A stretch of DNA of 20,000 nucleotides from an uncultured virus (IMG/VR IMGVR_UViG_3300015371_000019) (lineage: Duplodnaviria > Heunggongvirae > Uroviricota > Caudoviricetes). This document shows positions 8,603-19,427 of this stretch, piece after piece. The position numbers were made by a program, and so were the translations under genes. The stretch lies in IMG/VR virus record IMGVR_UViG_3300015371_000019; one strand, given 5' to 3'. The first letter of the stretch is position 1. Every line of letters begins with the position of its first letter. Under the pieces are notes generated by a model. That model was not told where the DNA came from. It worked only from the letters and a program-made list of their open reading frames with translations, and ran no database searches.

Positions 8603-9006
8603 AGCCCACCTCCCAAGTGCTTGATGCACTCCGGCCCGATACCCGCCTCGACGGACTCCGGCGTCGTGAGCTTGCGCCCGCACCGGCAGCACTTACCTTC
8701 GTGGAAGATCTCCACCTTGCCCTCGAGCCCGTTCCCGATGTGGGCCCACACCCAATTGAAGGCGACGGCGGACGGGGCCTCCGGGGTGATCCGGGACTTG
8801 CGCCCGTGGACGAACTTCTCCCCGTTGAAGATGGTTCCCAGGAACGCGTAGTTCGATTCGTTGTCCGGCCCGTTGAGGACCGAGACGAAATGCGGGGCGT
8901 CGTCCTTGGGTTGGCGAACCCGGAAGGTGAACCGGGTTCCCGTCTTGCAGGACCGGACGGTGAACGTGGCATTGCCCATGAGGGCGAATTGTTTGAGCGG
9001 GATCAT
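8599..9006 (-). CDS. DUF6011-like zinc-finger protein (135 aa)
   Basis: C-terminal CCRCGRKLTTPESVEAGIGPEC signature. ATG 9006 is coupled to the upstream stop. Confidence 0.8.
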   Translation of the reverse strand: MIPLKQFALMGNATFTVRSCKTGTRFTFRVRQPKDDAPHFVSVLNGPDNESNYAFLGTIFNGEKFVHGRKSRITPEAPSAVAFNWVWAHIGNGLEGKVEIFHEGKCCRCGRKLTTPESVEAGIGPECIKHLGGGL

Positions 9007-9377
9007 TGGACGGCAGGGGTGGAGGGTTTCACGGCATATTCGGACGCTTCTTCCTTCTTCAAATCGGCGATCGCATAGTTGGCGGACCACAACCCGCGGG
9101 ATCCTTTGCCCTTGCGGTCGTAGTCCATCCGGGTGTTGATCGAAACGGTCATCCGGCCGAAGCGCCGGTCGGTGTTCCGGAAGCTCACGAAGACGTGGGC
9201 GTATCGGATAACCGCACCCCGGTGCATCTCGACCGTCTTGGACAGGCAAACCAGGACCGAGAACGGACGGGCGCCCGGAACACCAAGGCGTTGGGCGGTG
9301 ACTTCGCGGGTCCAGCCCGCAGCTACGGCGCGGCGGATCAACTCCACCGCTTGTTTTTTTGATGCAATGTTGCTCAT
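9003..9377 (-). CDS. Hypothetical cassette protein (124 aa)
   Basis: ATG fixed by repeat copy R1. Confidence 0.7.
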   Translation of the reverse strand: MSNIASKKQAVELIRRAVAAGWTREVTAQRLGVPGARPFSVLVCLSKTVEMHRGAVIRYAHVFVSFRNTDRRFGRMTVSINTRMDYDRKGKGSRGLWSANYAIADLKKEEASEYAVKPSTPAVQ

Positions 9378-9407
9378 ATGGGTATGTATTAGCGGGTTAT
9401 AGGCCCA

Positions 9408-9629
9408 TCACTTCTGGGAAGCGGTGGCTCCGACGTGTTTGTTGTAAAGTTCTTGGGCCTTGGACCGGTCGCGGGTTTCCACGATCACGACCGTGTGGCC
9501 GACGGGGTAAACACCCACAACCGGGACCAGCAACGGACGGTTGAACCGTTTGAGGGCCATGTTAAGGGTGTGGATGTCCGGGGACGTTTCCCAGGTCAGC
9601 ACTTCGTATTTGATTTCGGTTTTGTTCAT
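9408..9629 (-). CDS. Hypothetical cassette protein (73 aa)
   Basis: Starts at R2 and ends ...SQK* inside R1. Confidence 0.75.
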   Translation of the reverse strand: MNKTEIKYEVLTWETSPDIHTLNMALKRFNRPLLVPVVGVYPVGHTVVIVETRDRSKAQELYNKHVGATASQK

Positions 9630-9649
9630 ATGGTTCCTATAAGCGGATG

Positions 9650-9856
9650 TTAGGCCCGTCTCAGGGCGGCGATCGCACCCGCGATCGCGGTGAGTCGGTC
9701 GAGACGGTCCTCCGGGGTGATGACTTGGACCATCTCCCGTTTGCCCGTCGCCGTCCGGCGGATCTCGGTGTAACCCGATCGGGTGGCTTCGCTAACGACC
9801 TCCACCCGGCCTTCCCGGATCGCCCGGGCCAAACTTGCTTGTGTCATTGTCTTCAT
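9650..9856 (-). CDS. Hypothetical cassette protein (68 aa)
   Basis: Starts at R3; stop lies inside R2. Confidence 0.75.
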   Translation of the reverse strand: MKTMTQASLARAIREGRVEVVSEATRSGYTEIRRTATGKREMVQVITPEDRLDRLTAIAGAIAALRRA

Positions 9857-9896
9857 ACTTGTGATATAAGCGGGTTAAAGGCCCACTCAAAATTGA

Positions 9897-10088
9897 TCAG
9901 CACCCTTTCCAGGAGGCCCGTCCCGCATACGGGTAATCCGTTCCTTTACCCAGTTTTGTGGCGGCCTCGAGGGCTTCACTCCGGTCGCTGGCTTCCACAT
10001 CCACCGACATCCACATCCCCCGTCCGGCCGGATCTGCGTGCATACGGACCGTCCATGTCCTTCTCATTGTTGTGATCGTTTTCTTCAT
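9897..10088 (-). CDS. Hypothetical cassette protein (63 aa)
   Basis: MKKTITTMRRTWTVRM..., with ATG 10088 fixed by R4. Confidence 0.7.
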   Translation of the reverse strand: MKKTITTMRRTWTVRMHADPAGRGMWMSVDVEASDRSEALEAATKLGKGTDYPYAGRASWKGC

Positions 10089-10440
10089 ACTCGTGATATA
10101 AGCGGGTCGCAGGCCCATTACTTCTGGGAAGTCCGGTGACCATCTCGTTCCCGATCTTGCGGGCGGCGGCGAGGGCCCCGTCCCGGGCGAAGTCCTCCGG
10201 GCCCATCGGGAGGCCGAGGACTTCCCGGAGCCACGGGAACGTCTTGATATTGTTAGGGGTAAACTGGAGGGTGTCCCGGCGGCGGCGGATGTAATCCTTG
10301 AGCAAGGCCACCTGGCGCTTAGGACCGGGCCGGCCCGCACCGTAATCCGCCAGGAGGAAGTTCACCGGCTCGTTCCCGACCAGGAGGGTCAAGGAGTGCC
10401 CCGTCATTAACAGCGTTGCATTTTGTTTCATATTTGACAT
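9976..10440 (-). CDS. Hypothetical cassette protein that reads out of frame through R4 (probably truncated or rearranged)
   Basis: ATG 10440 is fixed by R5; an in-frame alternative ATG is at 10500. The ORF misses the TAA in R4 and overlaps the next gene. Confidence 0.55.
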   Translation of the reverse strand: MSNMKQNATLLMTGHSLTLLVGNEPVNFLLADYGAGRPGPKRQVALLKDYIRRRRDTLQFTPNNIKTFPWLREVLGLPMGPEDFARDGALAAARKIGNEMVTGLPRSNGPATRLYHEYEENDHNNEKDMDGPYARRSGRTGDVDVGGCGSQRPE

Positions 10441-10497
10441 ACGGGTTCTATAAGCGGGTCGTTGGCCCATCGTTCTTGCGAATCGTTCGTTTACCAT

Positions 10498-10584
10498 CAT
10501 GCCGTAATATAACCCGGTCCTGGATCCCGTCAACGTCCCAATTCTATATTTTTAGAATTATCTTCTGGACCATCCCGGTGGACC
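10498..10584 (-). promoter_or_regulatory. Sigma70-like leaderless promoter module P1 with upstream palindrome and TGGACC repeat pair
   Basis: TTGACG (10528-10533), 16 bp, TATATT (10506-10511), 5 nt, ATG. Palindrome AATTCTA-N6-TAGAATT at 10540-10559. TGGACC-N7-TGGACC at 10566-10584. Confidence 0.65.
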
Positions 10585-10645: not shown

Positions 10646-12961
10646 TTACTGGACCACCGGGTTCCCGGCCGGGGCCTTCTCCAGCCCGGCCACATCCACC
10701 GGGGCGGCGGGAGCCAATCCTTTCCGGCCGGCATTGAGCTGGATCCGGATCGTATTGTCCGCCACCGTTGCCCCGATCCGGTTGAGGACGGCCCGGGTCC
10801 GCTTGAAGTCCCACCCGGCTACTCCACAGGCCCGGATGATTGCCACGGCGGAGTGTCCCCCGAAGGCGGCCGGCGTCGAGCGGGTCCGCTTCAACGGACC
10901 GGGTGTGCCCTTGGCTTCCTTGCCCGACTTGGACGGGGTGAGGCCCAAGCGGGTCCGGAGATCCACCGGGAGCTGCCGGTAATACTTGCGGAGCATCTTC
11001 AGCGCCACGGCCACTTGGCGGGGCGTGAGGGTGGCTTGAGCGGCCAAGGACTTTCCGTAGGCGGTGTCCATAGCGTTGAACCCGGCTTCATCCTTCCGAC
11101 GGGCCCCGTCGCACATCCCGGCCAGGATCTTGAGGGCTTGGTGGGTGTCGGTAATGACCTCAGCGGGTAGGGCCGGATCCTTCCGCGGCTTCATACCGGG
11201 TTCCTTCGGTCCGCCTTCTTCCTCCGGGTGGACGACCGGGATGATGGGCGATCCGGCCGCGGGTTGCGGTTGCGGCTCCGGGATGTCCTTGATGATTTCC
11301 TCCGGCCGGTTCTCGTTGAGCTTCAGGTCCCCGTCGTTCAGCAAGTCGATGCGGCCGATCTTCTCCCGGACTTGATCGCAGATCCGCTCCTCGATGGTCT
11401 TCGCGGCGAAGAAAATCCGTTGGAGGGATTTGACCCCGCCGGCCCGGTGGACCCGGCCGAGGGCTTGCTTGAGGTCCTGGCCACTCCAGGTCGGACAAAT
11501 GATTGCGAGGCGCATCCGTTTCCCGGGTGAGCCGTGGAGGGATACTCCGACGCCGCCGGCCTTGATGTTGCAGATGATGATCTTCTCCCGGTCCTCTTGG
11601 AACCCTTGGATGTTGTTCTCGCGGACCGTATCGGATTGCCCGCCCCGGATCACACACTCGGTTTTGAGCTTGGCCACGAGCGCGTCGGCCGACTCATCAA
11701 AGTTCACGAAGATCGCCACGGACATCCCTTCCTCGACGGCATCTTGCGCCATCGCGGCGATCGCCGGGACCTTGAGGATCTCGGCCTTCTGGCGGGCCCG
11801 GAGCATTGCGACCAGGATGCAGGCCCCGGTGTCCGCGTTCATCCGTTCCTGGAGGCGGGCGATCTCGTCCTTCATCTCGTCGTACACCGCATTGATCTTG
11901 GACTCGTTCCCGTTCGTGTCGTAACACTCCGCCGTGATTTGAGTCTCCGGGAAAGCGTTGCCGAGGTCGGCGATCCGAACGCGGGTCCCGTGGAGCGGAA
12001 AGATCTCCCGGTGGATGTGGTTGAGTTCCTCCACCCCGCCTTCAAAGCTCATGCCCCAACGACCCTTCTTGCAAGCGTGCGATTGGGCCCACGCCCAGAA
12101 TCGCTTCTCCGGGAAGCAACCCGTCAGGAACCCGCTGAACTTCATCTGGAGCGGGTTGTCCGCAGCCGTGGCCGAAAGCCCGATCACCATGTACTTCTGG
12201 CGGATGGCGGAAAGGCCGAGGGCACAATTCCAAGTCCGGTGATCCTTCAGCCGGTGGCACTCGTCGAAGATGATGATCGTGGTCGGATCCAAGTGCCATT
12301 GGAAGTCCTCGTTCTTGCCCTCGCCGACGATCCGGACGGCGGCTTGCTCACCCCGGCGGAGGAGCTCGTAGTTGCAAACGAAAATGCTCATCCCGAAATG
12401 AGCGGCGGCCCGTTTCCAGCTCGGCCGGACGGCCTTCGGGCAAACGACGTACACCGGGCGATTAAGGATGAAGGCGGCGGCGAGACTCGCGTAAGTCTTC
12501 CCGGTTCCCGTGTCGGACGCGTCGAGGGCCCCGTTATAGGTCGAGAGGGCTTTGACGAGCCGGCGGACCGAAGGGATCTGGAACGGGAGGAGTTTCTTCT
12601 CGATGAGCTTGAACCGGGCGTACTGCTCGGCCGTGAGCTTGGCGTGCTTACCCTCGAGGGCTTCCTTGAGCTCGAGCCGTTCCTCTTCCCGGCGGAGCCG
12701 CTCGGCTTCGACCACGGCGGGATCCAGCGGGAGCCACCAAAGGATTTCATACACGGGCAACCCGGCGTCGTCGTGCTTGACGTATTTGACGGTGATCCCG
12801 GCGGACCGGAGGGCTTCCCGGTTTGCGTTCCAGGTGTCCCAAAAGGAGTGCCCCCGCTCGGCCGGGGCCTTGCGGAGCATTCGGTCGCCGTTCTTCGTGG
12901 CGACCCGGACGGGTGCCGTCCACGGGAGGATTGTTTCGAGGTTGATATTCATATTTGACAT
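10646..12961 (-). CDS. SNF2-like SF2 helicase with C-terminal accessory domains (771 aa)
   Basis: Motifs DTGTGKT, IFDECH, LSAT, KAGGVGVSL and QALGRVHRAGG, followed by a Pro-rich linker, a CDGA...GFN..D...GKSLA segment and a terminal ~55-aa domain. ATG fixed by R6. Confidence 0.85.
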   Translation of the reverse strand: MSNMNINLETILPWTAPVRVATKNGDRMLRKAPAERGHSFWDTWNANREALRSAGITVKYVKHDDAGLPVYEILWWLPLDPAVVEAERLRREEERLELKEALEGKHAKLTAEQYARFKLIEKKLLPFQIPSVRRLVKALSTYNGALDASDTGTGKTYASLAAAFILNRPVYVVCPKAVRPSWKRAAAHFGMSIFVCNYELLRRGEQAAVRIVGEGKNEDFQWHLDPTTIIIFDECHRLKDHRTWNCALGLSAIRQKYMVIGLSATAADNPLQMKFSGFLTGCFPEKRFWAWAQSHACKKGRWGMSFEGGVEELNHIHREIFPLHGTRVRIADLGNAFPETQITAECYDTNGNESKINAVYDEMKDEIARLQERMNADTGACILVAMLRARQKAEILKVPAIAAMAQDAVEEGMSVAIFVNFDESADALVAKLKTECVIRGGQSDTVRENNIQGFQEDREKIIICNIKAGGVGVSLHGSPGKRMRLAIICPTWSGQDLKQALGRVHRAGGVKSLQRIFFAAKTIEERICDQVREKIGRIDLLNDGDLKLNENRPEEIIKDIPEPQPQPAAGSPIIPVVHPEEEGGPKEPGMKPRKDPALPAEVITDTHQALKILAGMCDGARRKDEAGFNAMDTAYGKSLAAQATLTPRQVAVALKMLRKYYRQLPVDLRTRLGLTPSKSGKEAKGTPGPLKRTRSTPAAFGGHSAVAIIRACGVAGWDFKRTRAVLNRIGATVADNTIRIQLNAGRKGLAPAAPVDVAGLEKAPAGNPVVQ

Positions 12962-12990
12962 ATGGGTTGGTTAAGCGGGTTGCTGGCCCA

Positions 12991-13212
12991 TCAAAGGTGG
13001 GAAAGTCCTTGGGACTTGAAGAGGTCCATCGTCGCGTCCCGTTGGAGCCCGGTGAGCTGCCCCCAATCGGCGGAAGCCCAACGGTCCGCCAAGGCGGTCC
13101 AATGGGGATGTCTCATTGTTGCATCCGTCCGGATCAGGGCAAGGCGCTCGGCTTTGCTCATACGGTCCCACCTGTATCCGGCCGGCCCGACGTTTTTCGT
13201 GTTCTTACTCAT
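12991..13212 (-). CDS. Hypothetical cassette protein (73 aa)
   Basis: Starts at R7 and ends SHL* inside R6. Confidence 0.75.
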   Translation of the reverse strand: MSKNTKNVGPAGYRWDRMSKAERLALIRTDATMRHPHWTALADRWASADWGQLTGLQRDATMDLFKSQGLSHL

Positions 13213-13253
13213 GGGTATGTATTAGCGGGTCGTAGGCCCACCAGGTTTGAGAA

Positions 13254-13541
13254 TCACTCCGCGGCCCATCCGCCCACAAGCCAATACTCCTCGGTGGCCG
13301 TTTTAACGGTAACGGCGAGGACCGGGCCCCACTTCTCGGTGTTTTCCCAAATGTAATCCTCGGCGGCGTCCCGGTCCTTGAAAACCTGGGAGGACGTTTT
13401 GATCCCGCGGGTTGTGGAGATGGTCCCGTTGTATTGGTCCTGCCCGTATTCGCGGGTTGCCCCGTCCACGGCGGCCCGATACCACTTGGTGAGGTCGGTG
13501 CCCTTGGTTACTTTGAATCCTCCGATGTTCGTTGCGCCCAT
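13254..13541 (-). CDS. Hypothetical phage protein (95 aa)
   Basis: EYGQDQYNGTIST...KWGPVLAV...GGWAAE. Lies downstream of R8 behind an A-rich leader; its stop abuts R7. Confidence 0.75.
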   Translation of the reverse strand: MGATNIGGFKVTKGTDLTKWYRAAVDGATREYGQDQYNGTISTTRGIKTSSQVFKDRDAAEDYIWENTEKWGPVLAVTVKTATEEYWLVGGWAAE

Positions 13542-13589
13542 ATTCTCGTTTGTGTTAATTGTTTACCGTCGGGTATGTATAAGCGGGTG

Positions 13590-13850
13590 TCAGGCCCGTT
13601 TCCGTTTGAGAACTTGCTTGGCGTCGAGTTGGGCGGAGTAGGTGCGCCCGTGCGTTTCGTGGACCACCGAGGCCCGGCCCGCTTCGTAGGCGGCCTCGAG
13701 CGCGGCTTTGATCTGCCAAACTGCTTGATCGCTAAAGTCGAGCCCGTCGGAACGGCGGGTGTCGAGGGTTTCCAAATGGAGGGTTTCGCGGGCGATCCCG
13801 AGGAGGGTCGCGTCCCGGCCCGTTGTTTCGTTTTTGTTCATGTTCTTCAT
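13590..13850 (-). CDS. DUF6900-like protein (86 aa)
   Basis: IARETLHLETLDTRRSDGLDFSDQAVWQIKAALEAAYEAG is the recognised pattern. ATG 13850 fixed by R9. Confidence 0.75.
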   Translation of the reverse strand: MKNMNKNETTGRDATLLGIARETLHLETLDTRRSDGLDFSDQAVWQIKAALEAAYEAGRASVVHETHGRTYSAQLDAKQVLKRKRA

Positions 13851-13881
13851 ACGAGATGATATAAGCGGGTCGCAGGCCCAT

Positions 13882-14247
13882 TCATTTTGGGAAAGAGTCC
13901 ACTTCGACGGTCCACGGGTTCCCGCAGGAGGATCCGTTGTTGTAACGGACGCTGATCCCGCCGGCCTGGGCCCGGAAGGCATCGGCCTCTTCCTTTGTAG
14001 CGAACGTTCGTATGGTCCGGGCGGCGGGCGGAGTAAGCGGGTTGCCGGATCCGACTTGGACCGCCATCCCGCGGAAGATCCCACGGTCCTTCATAAAGGC
14101 CTTGGCTTCCTCCTCGGTGGCAAACCGGGTGGACTTCCTAAGGTTGAGGGTGGATTTGAACCCGGTCGGAGGAGCGTCCACGACCATCCGGCCCGAGGGT
14201 TGGAGCATTATTGCCCAGGTGATTGTTCGTTGTTTCATTTTTGTCAT
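13882..14247 (-). CDS. Hypothetical cassette protein with an internal duplicated FATxEEAxAF motif (121 aa)
   Basis: Starts at R10 and ends FPK* in R9. Contains RFATEEEAKAF and TFATKEEADAF. Confidence 0.75.
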   Translation of the reverse strand: MTKMKQRTITWAIMLQPSGRMVVDAPPTGFKSTLNLRKSTRFATEEEAKAFMKDRGIFRGMAVQVGSGNPLTPPAARTIRTFATKEEADAFRAQAGGISVRYNNGSSCGNPWTVEVDSFPK

Positions 14248-14277
14248 ACGGGTTGATATAAGCGGGTCGCAGGCCCA

Positions 14278-14679
14278 TTACTTCTGGGAAACGAGGTAGG
14301 TGGTCCAATTGTCCCCGCCGTTGATATCCCGCCAAACTTCCCACCGGGTCGCCTCCGGCCAACCCGGTTTCTTGAGCAACTTCTTCAGCCACCCGACCGC
14401 CTTCCCGGCGGACGTGAAGGACCCGTTCGTGTAGGGCCCGTGTCCCCACGGATCCATCCTCCACCCGGCGGCCTTGCGCTTGTTCCATTCCTCGACGGTG
14501 AGGGCGGAGTCCACGACTTCGATCGTATGGACGGCGGCGAGCCCCTGGACCGGATGCTCTTTGACCTTGCCCACGGCCCGGAGCAGATCCAGGGTGGAGG
14601 CGTTGAAAAGCTTCGAGGACGCGATCACCCCGGCGGCGGCGATCCCCGCCTCGATTGTGTCTTTGATCGGGTTGCTCAT
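14278..14679 (-). CDS. Hypothetical protein (133 aa)
   Basis: ATG 14679 lies 1 nt after the upstream stop. Ends SQK* in R10. Confidence 0.7.
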   Translation of the reverse strand: MSNPIKDTIEAGIAAAGVIASSKLFNASTLDLLRAVGKVKEHPVQGLAAVHTIEVVDSALTVEEWNKRKAAGWRMDPWGHGPYTNGSFTSAGKAVGWLKKLLKKPGWPEATRWEVWRDINGGDNWTTYLVSQK

Positions 14680-14680
14680 G

Positions 14681-15049
14681 TTAATCCGTTCCCTCGAAGT
14701 GATGGGTGTGCTTGTTCCCGTCCCGGACGGTGACCAGGATCCCGTGGGAGGTTTTGCTCGCAATGTCCTTGTCCCCAATGCCCCAACCGAGGTTGTAAAT
14801 CTCGATTCGGTGCTTGGCGGCATAAGCAACGTGGGCGTCCGTCATCCGCATTTCCTCGAGCTGGTTCACGTCCTCGTCCGGGGAGAGGATGTCCTCCGAC
14901 GGGAGGGCTGTGGACTCCGCCCGGATCTCGCGTTTGCCGTCGTTCCAAATCTTCCGGACCCGCTTGTCGTGGGCGATTGCTTGGGCCCGGTCCGCGAACG
15001 GGCCGACGAACATGCCCGCAACGTTGGAGTGGATGTAATAGTGTTTCAT
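14681..15049 (-). CDS. Hypothetical protein (122 aa)
   Basis: Separated by 1-nt gaps from both neighbours. Confidence 0.7.
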   Translation of the reverse strand: MKHYYIHSNVAGMFVGPFADRAQAIAHDKRVRKIWNDGKREIRAESTALPSEDILSPDEDVNQLEEMRMTDAHVAYAAKHRIEIYNLGWGIGDKDIASKTSHGILVTVRDGNKHTHHFEGTD

Positions 15050-15050
15050 A

Positions 15051-15212
15051 TTAGTTGACGCGTTTGGTTACCCGGAGGCCGTCCGCCGAAAGGTAAGTGT
15101 GGGTGATTATGACGGATCCACGTTTGGATACGGTGCGGGAGACGGTGACGTCCACCCACCCCCACTGCTCGCAGACCCGGAAGGTTGTTTCGTTTTTGTT
15201 CATGTTCTTCAT
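15051..15212 (-). CDS. Small hypothetical cassette protein (53 aa)
   Basis: Not in the track. MKNMNKNETTFRVCEQWGWVDVTVSRTVSKRGSVIITHTYLSADGLRVTKRVN*. ATG fixed by R11; stop lies 1 nt before the next ATG. Confidence 0.7.
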   Translation of the reverse strand: MKNMNKNETTFRVCEQWGWVDVTVSRTVSKRGSVIITHTYLSADGLRVTKRVN

Positions 15213-15242
15213 ACGAGATGATATAAGCGGGTTGCTGACCCA

Positions 15243-15698
15243 TTATTTGTGGGAAACGGCTTCGGCCTTCGTCCGATACACGGCGACCATCTTCCGGCCG
15301 GATCCTTTGTTCCACCGGGCCCACTCTTTAAGGGCAATCGCCCGGGCAACCTCTTCGCTCCGGGTCCAGGTCCAAATCTCGAAGGCCTCGACGGCCCGTA
15401 AGTCGTTGACCGTGTAGAACATAAATTGCTTGAGGATGCCCTTGTCCGGCACCGGGCGTTCGGCCGGGACGCAGGACCGGATCTCCGCCAACTGCCCGTC
15501 CGTCAACGGGGCGGGTTCGCCCCGCTCACCGAGCCGGCCGGCCGATTGCTGGGCCCGGATGGTCGCGTCCGCCACGGCGATCCCGGCTTTGGCCAGGAAG
15601 GCCCTAATGGTTTGAAATTCAATGTGCTCCCGACCGCACCGGCGGATCACCGCCGTGGGAGCGAACCCGAACACCGTTTGTTTCTCGTTTGTTACCAT
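15243..15698 (-). CDS. Hypothetical cassette protein (151 aa); N-terminal domain homologous to the C-terminus of the 771-aa helicase
   Basis: Starts at R12 and ends SHK* in R11. Contains FG...AVIRRCG...VADATIRAQ..AGR. Confidence 0.8.
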   Translation of the reverse strand: MVTNEKQTVFGFAPTAVIRRCGREHIEFQTIRAFLAKAGIAVADATIRAQQSAGRLGERGEPAPLTDGQLAEIRSCVPAERPVPDKGILKQFMFYTVNDLRAVEAFEIWTWTRSEEVARAIALKEWARWNKGSGRKMVAVYRTKAEAVSHK

Positions 15699-15731
15699 AT
15701 ACGAGTGATATAAGCGGGTTCGTGGCCCGTC

Positions 15732-15833
15732 CTAGCCGAGAAAAGTAAGGGCGACCCATAGGAGGGCATAGGCCCCGATCCCGATGGAGGCGAGCTTTAC
15801 TTTAATGTCTAACATGTTGATATGGTGGATCAT
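15732..15833 (-). CDS. Putative single-pass membrane peptide (33 aa)
   Basis: ATG 15833 overlaps the upstream stop (ATGA). Hydrophobic stretch LASIGIGAYALLWVALTFLG. Stop lies inside R12. Confidence 0.5.
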   Translation of the reverse strand: MIHHINMLDIKVKLASIGIGAYALLWVALTFLG

Positions 15834-16090
15834 AGACCCTTGAATTGGTGGTCGAGTTCGATCTGCCGCTTTTGGAAGTCCTCGGCCCGACCAATGTTCT
15901 CTTTCCAGCTGAACGAGTAACCGTTCCAGGTGGTCCATTGGACCACGCTCGTAAACCGGTCCTCTCCCCGGCCGAACCGGGCCAAGATGATTTTACCCGG
16001 CTCGATGACCTCCGTCACCGTCCCGGTGAGCCGGTTGCCCGACTCAAACGTGACCTTTACTTTATCACCGACTTTAACATTTTCGTTCAT
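15830..16090 (-). CDS. Small beta-rich (KOW/SH3-like) protein (86 aa)
   Basis: VKVGDKVKV...TGTVTEV. ATG 16090 fixed by R13. Confidence 0.7.
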   Translation of the reverse strand: MNENVKVGDKVKVTFESGNRLTGTVTEVIEPGKIILARFGRGEDRFTSVVQWTTWNGYSFSWKENIGRAEDFQKRQIELDHQFKGL

Positions 16091-16124
16091 ACGGGTTGAT
16101 ATAAGCGGGTTAGAGGCCCGTCGT

Positions 16125-16358: not shown

Positions 16359-16444
16359 GCGCTAATATGGCCCCGGCTTGATATCCCGTCAACACCGGGT
16401 TCTCTAAAATTTTAGAATAATCTGCTGGACCATCGGGATGGACC
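16356..16444 (-). promoter_or_regulatory. Sigma70-like leaderless promoter module P2 (paralog of P1)
   Basis: TTGACG (16387-16392), 17 bp, CATATT (16364-16369), 5 nt, ATG. Perfect palindrome TCTAAAATTTTAGA at 16403-16416. TGGACC-N7-TGGACC at 16426-16444. Confidence 0.7.
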
Positions 16445-17370: not shown

Positions 17371-18723
17371 TCAACGATTCCTTCCAAGGCCGCGTAGTAG
17401 CTCGTCAAACACGTCCAAGTCTGTCGAACGCGCTTTCCCGTCCAAGACTGCGTCGAGTATCGAAGCCTTGCGCTTTAATATCTTCATGAGCTTCTCCTCC
17501 ACGGTGTCGATGGCGACCAAATAGTAAATGAGGACCGGGTGCTTCTGGGTGATGCGGTGCGTCCGGTCCTCTGCTTGGAGGAGGTCGCCCGGTGTCCAAG
17601 GGAGGTCGAAGAAGAAGGTCCGCCAGGCCGCCGTCAAAGTGATGCCCGTCCCGGCGGCCTGGAGGTTGCCGAGGAGGAGCCGGATCCGCTTGTTCGTTTG
17701 GAAAGCCCGGTGGACGGTTTCCCGGTGCCGCCCAGTCACCCGGCCGTCGAGGATAACCGCGCGGTGACCATACTCCTTGTAAAGGGTATCGACGACGAAG
17801 GTGTGCCGGGTAAAGCCCACGATCTTCTCCCGCGGGTTGGCCTCGAGGAGATCGTCAATCCACCCCTTCGCTTGGTCGAGCTTGAGCTTGGCGACGAGCC
17901 GGAGCAGATACCCGATGCGGGTGAGGGCCTGGCTGCGAGCTGCCCGTAAGGCCCGGGCTGGGCTGATGGACCGGAGCCAACCTAGGAAGTCCTGTTCTGC
18001 TTGGTCATACTCCTTCCGGTCCTCCAACCGGAATGGAACGACCTGTCGGGTTTTGGCCGGGAGCTCTGTCTGTACATCCTTTTTGAGGCGGCGGATCATA
18101 CAGGACTCCGCCAACAACCGGTTCAGCTGTTTCAGATCCTGAGCCCCGTCATACTTCCAGCCCCAAGGCGTCCACCGGGGAGCACAATACTTCCAAGCGT
18201 AATGACGGACGGAGGGAAAGAGGTCCGGGCGGATCATATGTAAGGCCGGCCACAATTCGATCGGCCGGTTCACCAACGGGGTGCCTGACAACCCGATGAC
18301 GGACGGGACACCGCGGGTTAAAGCTAGCGCGGCCTTCGTCCGTTTGGCCCGGAGGGACTTGCAGTAATGGACTTCGTCTATGATCACACACTCCGGCCTC
18401 AACCGGAGGAGGATCGGGAGCCAGCTGTGGAGGATGTCGTAGTTGATGATGTAGATGCCCCGCTTCGAGAGGGAATCACGGCCTCCGTTCCGCCCCTCGA
18501 GCACTTCAGTCCGTAGGTCGAAGTGGTCGGAGGCCTCCAGCTGCCACACATACTTCATGGAAGCCGGGGACACAATGATCACCGGGCGTCGGGTTGGAAT
18601 CTTCGTCACCCAGTAGAGGGCTTGGATTGTCTTGCCCAAGCCCATCTCATCGGCGAGTAAGGCCCGTCCACGAAACTGGTAGATCTGTTTGACGCCTTCG
18701 AGTTGAAAGGGTCGTAGCTTCAC
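17371..18723 (-). CDS. SNF2-family (HARP/SMARCAL1-like) helicase (450 aa)
   Basis: Motifs LRPFQ, LLADEMGLGKT, IIDEVH, LSGTPLVNRPIELW, MIRRLK, AAGTGITL and QAEDRTHRI. Confidence 0.92.
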   Translation of the reverse strand: MKLRPFQLEGVKQIYQFRGRALLADEMGLGKTIQALYWVTKIPTRRPVIIVSPASMKYVWQLEASDHFDLRTEVLEGRNGGRDSLSKRGIYIINYDILHSWLPILLRLRPECVIIDEVHYCKSLRAKRTKAALALTRGVPSVIGLSGTPLVNRPIELWPALHMIRPDLFPSVRHYAWKYCAPRWTPWGWKYDGAQDLKQLNRLLAESCMIRRLKKDVQTELPAKTRQVVPFRLEDRKEYDQAEQDFLGWLRSISPARALRAARSQALTRIGYLLRLVAKLKLDQAKGWIDDLLEANPREKIVGFTRHTFVVDTLYKEYGHRAVILDGRVTGRHRETVHRAFQTNKRIRLLLGNLQAAGTGITLTAAWRTFFFDLPWTPGDLLQAEDRTHRITQKHPVLIYYLVAIDTVEEKLMKILKRKASILDAVLDGKARSTDLDVFDELLRGLGRNR

Positions 18724-19331
18724 GATGCGCGAAACCGGGTGAGCAGGGCAGCACCCAGTTCCTGCACAGCTTGTTCAATACGGGTAGGGCATTCGACCTG
18801 ACGCTTCAGCTTGGCCTTGGCTTTCCTGAAGTGGGTGTGAGCCGTTCCCCGAAAGTCCTGCGGAATCTCCATTAGCAGTAATACCAGCTCCTGGCCGTCC
18901 TGGGAAAGCCCGGCCATGAGGTCCCATAACTCCGCTGGTGTTTCGTGTAACATCCGCCAGATTATCTGTCCGCAGTGTCGGGGCGGGGTGGAAGCGGATA
19001 GGACCGGGGTAGGTGGATCCTCGACGGCGACCTCCGGGAGGGTTTCAGCGAACTCGTAGTACACGATCTTCGCCGACCGTTTGGACTCCCGCATGATCCA
19101 GCTCTTCATTTGTTGGGTAACTACGAAGTGGCACCAGGAGGAGAACTTCATCTTGTGGCCCGTCCGGTACAGCCGGCACGCTTTCAGGAAGCACCAGTAA
19201 GCCTCGCTCTTAGCCTCCTCAAAGGTGACGGGGTACATTTGCGAATACCTCCAAGCAATCTTCCATAACATAGGCTGCACGTCCTTGAATACCTTGCGCG
19301 GGTTTAATCCGACGGCGGTCGATGATTTCAT
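18720..19331 (-). CDS. Sigma-70 region 2-like protein (putative phage sigma factor)
   Basis: MLWKIAWRY...FEEAKSEAYWCFLKACRLY....MKFSSWCHFVVTQQMKSWIMRE parallels sigma regions 2.1-2.4. No clear region 4 HTH is visible. Confidence 0.65.
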   Translation of the reverse strand: MKSSTAVGLNPRKVFKDVQPMLWKIAWRYSQMYPVTFEEAKSEAYWCFLKACRLYRTGHKMKFSSWCHFVVTQQMKSWIMRESKRSAKIVYYEFAETLPEVAVEDPPTPVLSASTPPRHCGQIIWRMLHETPAELWDLMAGLSQDGQELVLLLMEIPQDFRGTAHTHFRKAKAKLKRQVECPTRIEQAVQELGAALLTRFRAS

Positions 19332-19407: not shown

Positions 19408-19427
19408 AATTCTAAAATTTTAGAATT
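19408..19427. promoter_or_regulatory. Perfect 20-bp palindrome in the divergent intergenic region (putative operator)
   Basis: AATTCTAAAATTTTAGAATT, the third copy of the P1/P2 palindrome. Confidence 0.7.

Follow-up and report, generated by a model that had tools for sequence, protein, structure and literature searches.

Repeated promoter cassettes are known to drive phage mosaicism. In the closest described system, the promoter-early stem-loops (PeSLs) of T4-type phages, the consulted parts of two reports describe repeats that span the interval from the upstream stop to the downstream start, cluster among orphan open reading frames (ORFs), recombine mutually and serve as points of recombination at which genes are reshuffled along with the expression signals that belong to them; the mapped crossovers fall between the -10 box and the ATG, and the G/C stem includes G-T pairs (PMC2839356, PMC4122927). 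In the current study, a 20,000-nt stretch of DNA from an uncultured virus of the Caudoviricetes (IMG/VR record IMGVR_UViG_3300015371_000019; the whole stretch is called the window below) was analyzed with respect to a family of 13 short repeats, hereafter cassettes, which lie before unrelated genes, and to an exact 49-nt identity between two of them that enters the coding sequence and gives two unrelated proteins the same ten N-terminal residues.

Like PeSLs, the cassettes repeat in the stop-to-start gaps of a variable, orphan-rich region. In contrast, PeSLs as described in the same reports carry a full sigma70 -35/-10 pair, a Shine-Dalgarno (SD) sequence and a demonstrated terminator stem-loop, whereas the cassette has no -35 box, no SD sequence and only a weak 5-bp stem without covariation. 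Moreover, PeSLs as defined there end just before the ATG, whereas the cassette unit reaches approximately 27 nt into the downstream ORF and approximately 12–15 nt into the tail of the upstream one. Shared N-terminal codons were not found mentioned in the available portions of the PeSL literature (PMC2839356, PMC4122927), and a limited literature search for such codons behind phage intergenic repeats returned nothing relevant, which is not proof that they are unpublished.

In Cluster K mycobacteriophages, the SAS/ESAS repeats are presented, in the part of the report consulted, as a 13-mer with the SD core AGGAG at 3–7 nt from the start codon, for which a translational role was proposed (PMC3203893). 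On this account, SAS and the cassettes are both short asymmetric repeats in one orientation, located in the non-structural half a few nucleotides upstream of the ATGs of unrelated genes; in both, the upstream stop sometimes falls inside the repeat, a GGG-N7-CCC outline is present and the function is unproven. The cassette differs from the SAS described there in its box sequence, in the lack of AGGAG, in having its end, a -10-like TATA, at 7–10 nt before the ATG, and in its A-rich coding head. Leaderless mRNAs, such as that of lambda cI from PRM (PMC10491246) or those of Caulobacter reporters (PMC8459731), resemble the present case, as far as the excerpts consulted go, in having a -10 box a few nucleotides before the ATG, no SD sequence and an accessible start; those are single genes or host regulons, whereas here a 13-fold repeat family exchanges first codons and its leaderless status is suggested by geometry. 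Morons, according to the same partial reading of the literature (PMC2839356), are small accessory genes with their own promoter and terminator, as the cassette genes have their own expression signals, but they have neither a flanking conserved repeat nor shared coding ends, and the cassette genes have both. The apparently new feature here is that a leaderless-type cassette has a conserved, exchangeable unit which overlaps the coding ends of the genes on both sides.

The minus strand is the coding strand for every gene of the window, and the 13 cassettes, between 9387 and 16119, are all co-oriented on this strand (Table 1). They occur in the non-structural region only and fill the stop-to-ATG gaps among small ORFs, mostly without family matches; 12 stand directly before an ATG and one is followed by a 36-nt leader. 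Each runs from the final codons and the stop of the upstream gene through the box GGGCC-N4-ACCCGCTTATA and a linker of 7–10 nt without an SD sequence to the ATG and approximately 8–9 A-rich codons. The consensus of the box is (A/G)(T/C)GGGCC, four variable nucleotides and ACCCGCT(T/A)ATA. A 12-mer of the box gave 14 matches at no more than two mismatches, against 0.73 expected, and the 10-mer CCCGCTWATA matches 11 of the 13 copies and is otherwise absent from the 46 kb covered by two overlapping virus records (G002 and G003). A hairpin with a 5-bp stem including G-T pairs is possible on the plus (template) strand, where 93% of the cells are paired, and pairing is poor in the mRNA. As no pair changes on both sides, this hairpin was given no weight.

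Table 1. Positions of the cassette cores, the 49-nt repeat, and the genes and promoters discussed in the text (window coordinates).
Feature	Coordinates	Strand	Remarks
Core e16119	16100..16119	-	GGGCC-N4-ACCCGCTTATA; before gene 15830-16090
Core e15728	15709..15728	-	before gene 15243-15698 (head MVTNEKQT)
Core e15241	15222..15241	-	GGGTC variant; before 53-aa ORF
Core e14276	14257..14276	-	before 121-aa gene
Core e13879	13860..13879	-	before DUF6900 gene
Core e13597	13578..13597	-	ATG missing from its usual position; A-rich untranslated leader of 36 nt (13542-13577), then gene 13254-13541
Core e13239	13220..13239	-	TAATA variant; before gene 12991-13212
Core e12989	12970..12989	-	TTAAC variant; before 771-aa helicase gene 10646-12961 (head MSNM)
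Core e10468	10449..10468	-	before ORF starting at 10440 (head MSNM)
Core e10116	10097..10116	-	before gene 9897-10088
Core e9884	9865..9884	-	before gene 9650-9856 (MKTM)
Core e9657	9638..9657	-	ATCCGC variant; before gene 9408-9629
Core e9406	9387..9406	-	TAATA variant; before gene 9003-9377
Copy 1 of 49-nt repeat	13822..13870	-	box 3' part, 9-nt linker, ATG and 26 nt of DUF6900 gene
Copy 2 of 49-nt repeat	15184..15232	-	heads 53-aa ORF
DUF6900 protein gene, 86 aa	13590..13850	-	MKNMNKNETT + GRDATLL...; PF21841
Orphan ORF, 53 aa	15051..15212	-	MKNMNKNETT + FRVCEQ...; no homologue except itself
122-aa gene	14681..15049	-	TAA-T-ATG junction with 53-aa ORF; no SD, no cassette
121-aa gene	13882..14247	-	head MTKMKQRT; after core e14276
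133-aa gene	14278..14679	-	ends VSQK-stop within 5' part of next cassette
sigma70-type promoter TTGACG-17-CATATT	16364..16392	-	-10 ends 5 nt before ATG 16358; palindrome TCTAAAATTTTAGA just upstream
sigma70-type promoter TTGACG-16-TATATT	10506..10533	-	-10 ends 5 nt before ATG 10500; related palindrome upstream
sigma-70-family protein (region 2), phage-encoded	18720..19331	-	PF04542, E 4e-8; upstream of cassette array

A preliminary description of this DNA had reported the exact 49-bp identity and its consequence, the peptide MKNMNKNETT at the start of two unrelated proteins, and both observations were borne out. The identity is complete (49/49 nt) and extends by 0 nt at either side. Read on the gene strand, it consists of ACCCGCTTATA (the final 11 nt of the conserved box), a linker of 9 nt, the ATG and the following 26 nt. 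Codons 2–9 of the two ORFs show no synonymous difference and codon 10 differs in its third base only (ACG/ACC); the identity also runs 20 nt upstream of the ATG. By BLASTP, only residues 1–12 of the 86-aa and 53-aa proteins align, 11 of them identical, so that full-length homology, which had been named as a possible objection, was not found. In the 10 nt past the right end of the identity, six positions match, which is not significant, whereas over the 36 nt after the ATG the pair reaches a local alignment score of 53, against a maximum of 30 in 5000 composition-preserving shuffles. The sharing of the 49 nt is not due to chance.

The second pair of heads proposed earlier was also recovered. 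The cassettes e10468 and e12989 both continue ATGTCAAATATGAA (MSNM); these sisters share the first 14 nt from the ATG, and their boxes have already diverged. Among all heads, 8 of the 105 pairs exceeded the 99th percentile of the shuffles over the 36 nt after the ATG, where approximately one was expected. The count of six MxxM starts was likewise confirmed among the 12 cassette-led ORFs, against 0.13 expected from shuffled heads; when one gene per sister pair was kept, 4 of 10 heads had this start, against 0.12 expected, and none of 20000 shuffles reached the count. In nucleotide terms, the genes starting at 15212, 14247, 13850, 12961, 10440 and 9856 have a second ATG in frame, exactly 9 nt behind the first one.

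As had been suggested, the repeated unit includes an A-rich segment and enters the coding sequence. Such a segment is present in all cassette-led genes; the mean A fraction in nt 4–33 was 0.49 in the cassette-led genes and 0.32 in 16 other genes (p 5e-5); A stood at 0.5–0.63 in nt 7–24 and returned to the body level of 0.1–0.2 after approximately nt 30. The mean minimum free energy of the first 40 nt was -1.7 kcal/mol in the cassette-led genes, compared with -5.8 in other genes (p 0.001) and -9.5 in internal 40-nt windows. Caulobacter reporters require an AUG at the 5' end and accessibility of the start region for leaderless initiation, as stated in the section of the report consulted (PMC8459731). 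Therefore, the head fits a requirement at the nucleic-acid level rather than at the protein level. The further proposal of gene birth on such a leader was not supported, since the body of the 53-aa ORF, of 42 codons only, shows the genome's coding-type pattern (GC1 0.57, GC2 0.50 and GC3 0.79).

Homologues were used to examine the head as a graft. The DUF6900 protein matches PF21841 at residues 12–61 (E 1.1e-22; 80.1 bits against a gathering cut-off of 24.1), with the head outside the domain. In an alignment of 36 of the 63 proteins found (the window protein and 35 homologues), MKNMNKNETT was present in none of the 35 homologues, whose N-terminal tails range from 0 to approximately 40 residues without shared sequence; in the closest ones, detectable similarity begins at G11-R12-D13, exactly at the end of the shared head. 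The first 15 nt of the head occur in none of the 78 non-self DUF6900 loci of IMG/VR, and an SD-led candidate start was found in 56 of the 65 loci whose core was found by motif, the other 13 of 78 being dropped. An AlphaFold (AF2) model places residues 1–9 outside the helices at a mean pLDDT of only 65, and this gives weak support to the head as an add-on. Thus, the expectation that the head is absent elsewhere was upheld for the DUF6900 homologues compared.

For the 53-aa protein, a search of 5.8 billion proteins returned only the protein itself. Among 1.84 billion cluster representatives, phmmer found the protein itself and eight long proteins; the latter were matched in 5–11 stretches, are repetitive, and were taken as compositional matches rather than homologues. 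There was no usable match in the Atlas and no paralogue in any frame of the phage DNA examined.

A further comparison came from a metagenome scan for the box, which returned 100 loci, five of them from the same phage (L049, L050, L057, L072 and L085) and one from a true relative (L087); the remaining loci are single, chance-like matches. This relative (1887 nt) has two cassettes, and one of its proteins is homologous to the 121-aa protein (E 1e-16, with 50% identity across 50 residues). No cassette precedes the gene of this homologue, which begins 1 nt past the upstream stop, and the homologue's Met1 corresponds in the alignment to residue 9 of the 121-aa protein; thus, the head MTKMKQRT is present only where the cassette is. 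In the database search, the 121-aa protein found itself only. Its public gene call is 101 aa long and starts at Met21, whereas in the comparison with the relative conservation of the coding sequence extends from residue 9 on; it seems that SD-less, cassette-led genes are given wrong starts by gene callers.

Behind the cassette of L087 copy b come a mini-ORF of six codons and an A-rich leader that is homologous to that of e13597 (score 32, with 27 as the null maximum), and the proteins downstream have no similarity. This type of leader is coding in the related head MVTNEKQT (15698) and untranslated at e13597 and in L087 copy b.

Based on this evidence, we consider it probable, with some reserve, that the 49-nt identity reflects a recent exchange between members of a 13-copy family of promoter cassettes that fire leaderless or near-leaderless mRNAs, and that the heads were carried along. 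The repeat family with its geometry, the missing SD sequence, the A-rich heads of low structure, the sharp junctions, the unrelatedness of the protein bodies and the lack of heads in cassette-free homologues were observed directly; the promoter activity, the transcription start, the acting sigma factor and the direction and mechanism of the exchange are inferred. In the proposed mechanism, the cassette would be a phage-specific promoter with a -10-like TATA(T/A)C and a GC-rich box in the place of the -35 element, read by a phage sigma factor or activator. Transcription would start at the ATG or no more than a few nucleotides from it, and the promoter and start codon, together with the first codons, which lack structure, would form one inseparable module of approximately 60–80 nt. 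Whenever recombination copied or homogenized this module, the first codons would move along and unrelated proteins would gain the same N-terminal peptide.

The 49-nt event itself may have been a duplication or a gene-conversion patch. Because its left end lies within the near-invariant box, a crossover there would be ordinary homologous recombination, and because its right end falls after codon 10 without flanking homology, it could be either the edge of a conversion patch in heads that were already similar or an illegitimate join. In the latter case, the promoter and head of one gene would have been placed onto another ORF. Either copy may have been the donor. The coding-type pattern of its body argues that the 53-aa ORF would be an existing ORF given a new promoter and head, rather than a de novo coding sequence.

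A broader generalization is put forward more tentatively. A self-homogenizing promoter-plus-head cassette may plug genes into the expression program of the phage, with a unit that overlaps both neighbors to the extent given above. Its turnover could write the same N-terminal (MKNMNKNETT, MSNM...) and C-terminal (-SQK, -SHK) peptides onto unrelated proteins, with the A-rich segment serving as a coding head or as an untranslated leader depending on the frame, and could thereby allow an exon-shuffling-like capture, re-heading and possibly creation of small genes.

The reading of the cassettes as promoters is drawn from their geometry. The -10 boxes of both canonical sigma70-type promoters of the region end 5 nt before an ATG (Table 1), so leaderless geometry is already used by unambiguous promoters here. 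The cassette box ends in TATATC or TAATAC at 5–8 nt before the ATG. In the relative L014, ACCCGC-TAATAT serves as the -10 of a TTGAAG-16-TAATAT promoter upstream of the sigma-factor gene. An SD-like motif was found in 1 of 12 cassette-led genes and in 6 of 15 other genes; elsewhere in the phage, genes are preceded by GGAGG-type motifs or joined to the gene before them by tight stop-start coupling, and have no cassette. Since the canonical promoters share the geometry, the box ends in a -10-like element near the ATG and the SD sequence is missing, the cassettes are presumably promoters for leaderless or near-leaderless mRNAs. Two other promoter types were tried and rejected: an archaeal TATA/BRE promoter, as the TATA is too close to the ATG and the features of the phage are bacterial, and ECF-type -35/-10 spacing, as no AAC...CGT pair occurs at 16–17 nt.

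Several points weigh against this reading or against the exchange. A sigma70 consensus scan found none of the cassettes to carry a sigma70-type site; the -35 box is missing, with GGGCC-N4-ACCCGC in that space, and the -10-like hexamer lacks the usual final T. Because of these absences a dedicated reader is suspected, namely a phage sigma-family protein or an activator, on the basis of position; the phage-encoded sigma factor is a candidate by the proximity of its gene. The linker varies from 7 to 10 nt, so one start distance cannot set +1 on the A of every ATG; two copies (e13597 and L087 copy b) clearly have leaders of 36–42 nt; and even short leaders depress leaderless initiation, according to the portion of the Caulobacter report consulted (PMC8459731). 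Nor does the reading account for the second ATG in frame at codon 4, seen in 4 of 10 independent heads; it could be a fail-safe start for a wobbling transcription start, or a 9-nt duplication. In the contigs of four sequencing runs, no recombinant, pre-exchange or head-less variant of either copy was found. The comparison with L087 fits either gain or loss of a head. Finally, the relatives L013 and L014, with 80–88% identity in the SNF2 helicase, have no cassette array in the little DNA available.

The main rival, which we regard as unlikely, accepts the same recombination history but lets the cassette act on RNA, as an SAS-like intercistronic element for translation initiation or regulator binding within long transcripts from 16392 and 10533. 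It agrees with the canonical promoters that head each half of the array, with the long A-rich leaders at two copies, with the placement of the cassettes between a stop and the next ATG at a fixed distance, which is SAS-like, and with the GGG-N7-CCC outline common to the box and SAS, as far as the latter are described in the part consulted (PMC3203893). The cassette, however, contains no SD core, whereas the SAS described there contain AGGAG, and the other genes of this phage manage by GGAGG or stop-start coupling without a cassette. The TATA stands at promoter distance, ACCCGC-TAATAT is a -10 box in L014, and the hairpin that could form is better paired on the template strand than as mRNA; these observations speak against this rival.

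A second rival concerns the 53-aa ORF, which would be no protein gene of its own but a translated adapter, with a promoter and head set upstream, receiving ribosomes at a leaderless AUG and passing them by stop-start coupling to the SD-less 122-aa gene; we hold this to be rather improbable. The stop of the 53-aa ORF is 1 nt before the ATG of the 122-aa gene, and the latter is probably coupled to it translationally. For this reason, the 53-aa ORF may also deliver ribosomes to the 122-aa gene. The lack of homologues in the protein collections searched, apart from the protein itself and repetitive long proteins, and the lack of a paralogue agree with this reading. Nevertheless, the body carries a coding signature (GC3 0.79 against GC2 0.50, though over just 42 codons), and genuine early proteins of phages are often orphans.

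Conservation of the decapeptide by selection on the proteins, for example as a targeting or degradation tag, instead of recent exchange, is disfavored and seems very unlikely. Similar K/N/T-rich peptides do arise from several heads, but codons 2–9 are without synonymous difference, the identity continues 20 nt upstream of the ATG, the leader type is untranslated at two copies and homologues do without the head. Similarly remote is the idea of an integron-like system of gene cassettes with site-specific exchange, in which the repeats would be the attachment sites. Although small, co-oriented orphan ORFs with a repeat between them recall such a system, the imperfect inverted-repeat architecture of attC is missing, the sole possible stem being 5 bp; no integrase family was found among the window and flank proteins scanned (approximately 46 kb of an approximately 73-kb genome), and the repeat lies at promoter distance from each ATG. 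An assembly artefact, the other objection raised beforehand, can be practically dismissed: two assemblies do break near cassettes (13278-13317; 14139), but G002, an independent assembly, is 100% identical to window positions 13500-15700 over 2201 nt, with both copies at the same spacing, and four per-run contigs bridge copy 1 (X1 record 3 and X4 record 25) or copy 2 (X2 record 13 and X3 record 22) with 0 differences and no chimeric join. These runs are not all independent, as the window itself may stem from some of them.

If the promoter fires leaderless mRNAs, the regulatory unit is inseparable from the first codons, and the shuffling of regulatory cassettes would also edit protein N-termini and, here, C-termini. 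This would explain the variable, low-complexity ends, unrelated to the folded domains, on many small phage proteins, would call for caution against taking shared termini as homology, and would offer a concrete route by which ORFs are captured into a phage expression program. The box, linker and A-rich head together form a compact candidate expression module for high-GC hosts, and the mis-started call of the 121-aa gene illustrates a practical consequence for gene annotation.

The 5' part of the cassette falls inside the upstream ORF, and unrelated proteins end in -VSQK, -VSHK, -ASQK, -LSHL or -SFPK before the stop. The source sequence of these tails is often TTyCCCAnAAnTAA (tails -SQK, -SHK and -FPK), and tail-bearing sites lie upstream of the cores at 9406-9425, 10116-10135, 12989-13005, 13879-13895, 14276-14295 and 15241-15260 (minus strand). 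One gene of L087 ends in -FSQ. Sharing of C-terminal tails thus parallels that of the heads.

At one cassette the arrangement is irregular. The ORF 9976-10440 (minus strand, MSNMKQ...) crosses e10116 without the usual stop and overlaps the next gene by 47 codons, and the frame ending in -TSQK-stop at e10116 is open for 38 codons only (10118-10234). A natural frameshift in the 3' part of the ORF is possible; two other assemblies are identical there. Upstream of the same ORF, the frame from the ATG at 10500 (window 10441-10500), which would be a leaderless start of the promoter at 10506-10533, crosses e10468 (…GQRPAYRTR…) into the MSNM ORF, and two promoters could yield a long and a short form of one protein, from 10500 and 10440.

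Regarding mobility, the two sister pairs, with their sharp junctions, argue for exchange in the past; no deletion or circle junctions between cassettes were found in the contigs of the four runs. An apparent joint from 13240 to 16097 (side of 23 nt, 85% likeness), with the two cassettes out of register, was taken as cross-alignment of paralogous copies and not as a deletion. Two public assemblies of this phage break in or near the array, with contigs ending at 13317 and starting at 13278 and 14139; the cassette repeats probably hamper assembly. A search with the SNF2 helicase gave 10 loci, one being the phage's own record and nine showing 42–88% identity, and at these nine neither a cassette array nor homologues of the small genes were found; L013 ends inside the primase gene and L014 has different DNA in that place. 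Relatives of the 771-aa helicase in IMG/VR come from the same phage only, as do the two records returned by a viral scan for the box with its N4 spacer. When prokaryotes were scanned with one genome for each species, neither a prophage copy nor an array was found, only 73 single matches in unrelated taxa, and megablast against GenBank phages gave no match to the window. As far as these sequences go, transfer of cassettes appears as exchange within one phage and as leader types shared with one relative, and not as that of an autonomously mobile element.

The G+C content of the phage is 60%. The window encodes QueD/QueE-like enzymes, a DnaB-like helicase, a replication initiator, two SF2 helicases, a primase and a sigma-70-family protein, the last scoring 21.2 bits against TIGR02937, under the cut-off of 42.9. 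The two overlapping records agree with the window at 100% or 99.99% identity, together extend the DNA to approximately 46 kb, and add a tape-measure protein, a lambda-J-like tail protein, a DNA polymerase, a clamp, a clamp loader and MazG. CheckV completeness is 31% for each 23-kb record, and proteins identical to those of the phage occur on a 72,880-nt contig. From the tail and replication genes of the extension, the completeness values and the length of that contig, the element is a siphovirus-like phage of roughly 73 kb.

An AT-rich palindrome, TCTAAAATTTTAGA(AT), occurs at three sites in the window (19409-19426, 16401-16418 and 10541-10558). Counting both strands, there are seven matches where 0.04 are expected. 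Every one of the three sites falls at a sigma70-type -10/-35 region or just upstream of one, and in L014 the palindrome (1909-1924) lies upstream of the gene for the sigma factor. It has the look of an operator to which a repressor of early promoters would bind. Lastly, genes for QueE-like and QueD-like proteins, GTP cyclohydrolase and a queuine tRNA-ribosyltransferase-like protein were observed in the phage (window 420-1615 and 3-374; L012 30-1897), the further genes of the 7-deazaguanine pathway lying in the DNA beyond the window, and this gene set suggests 7-deazaguanine modification of the phage DNA.

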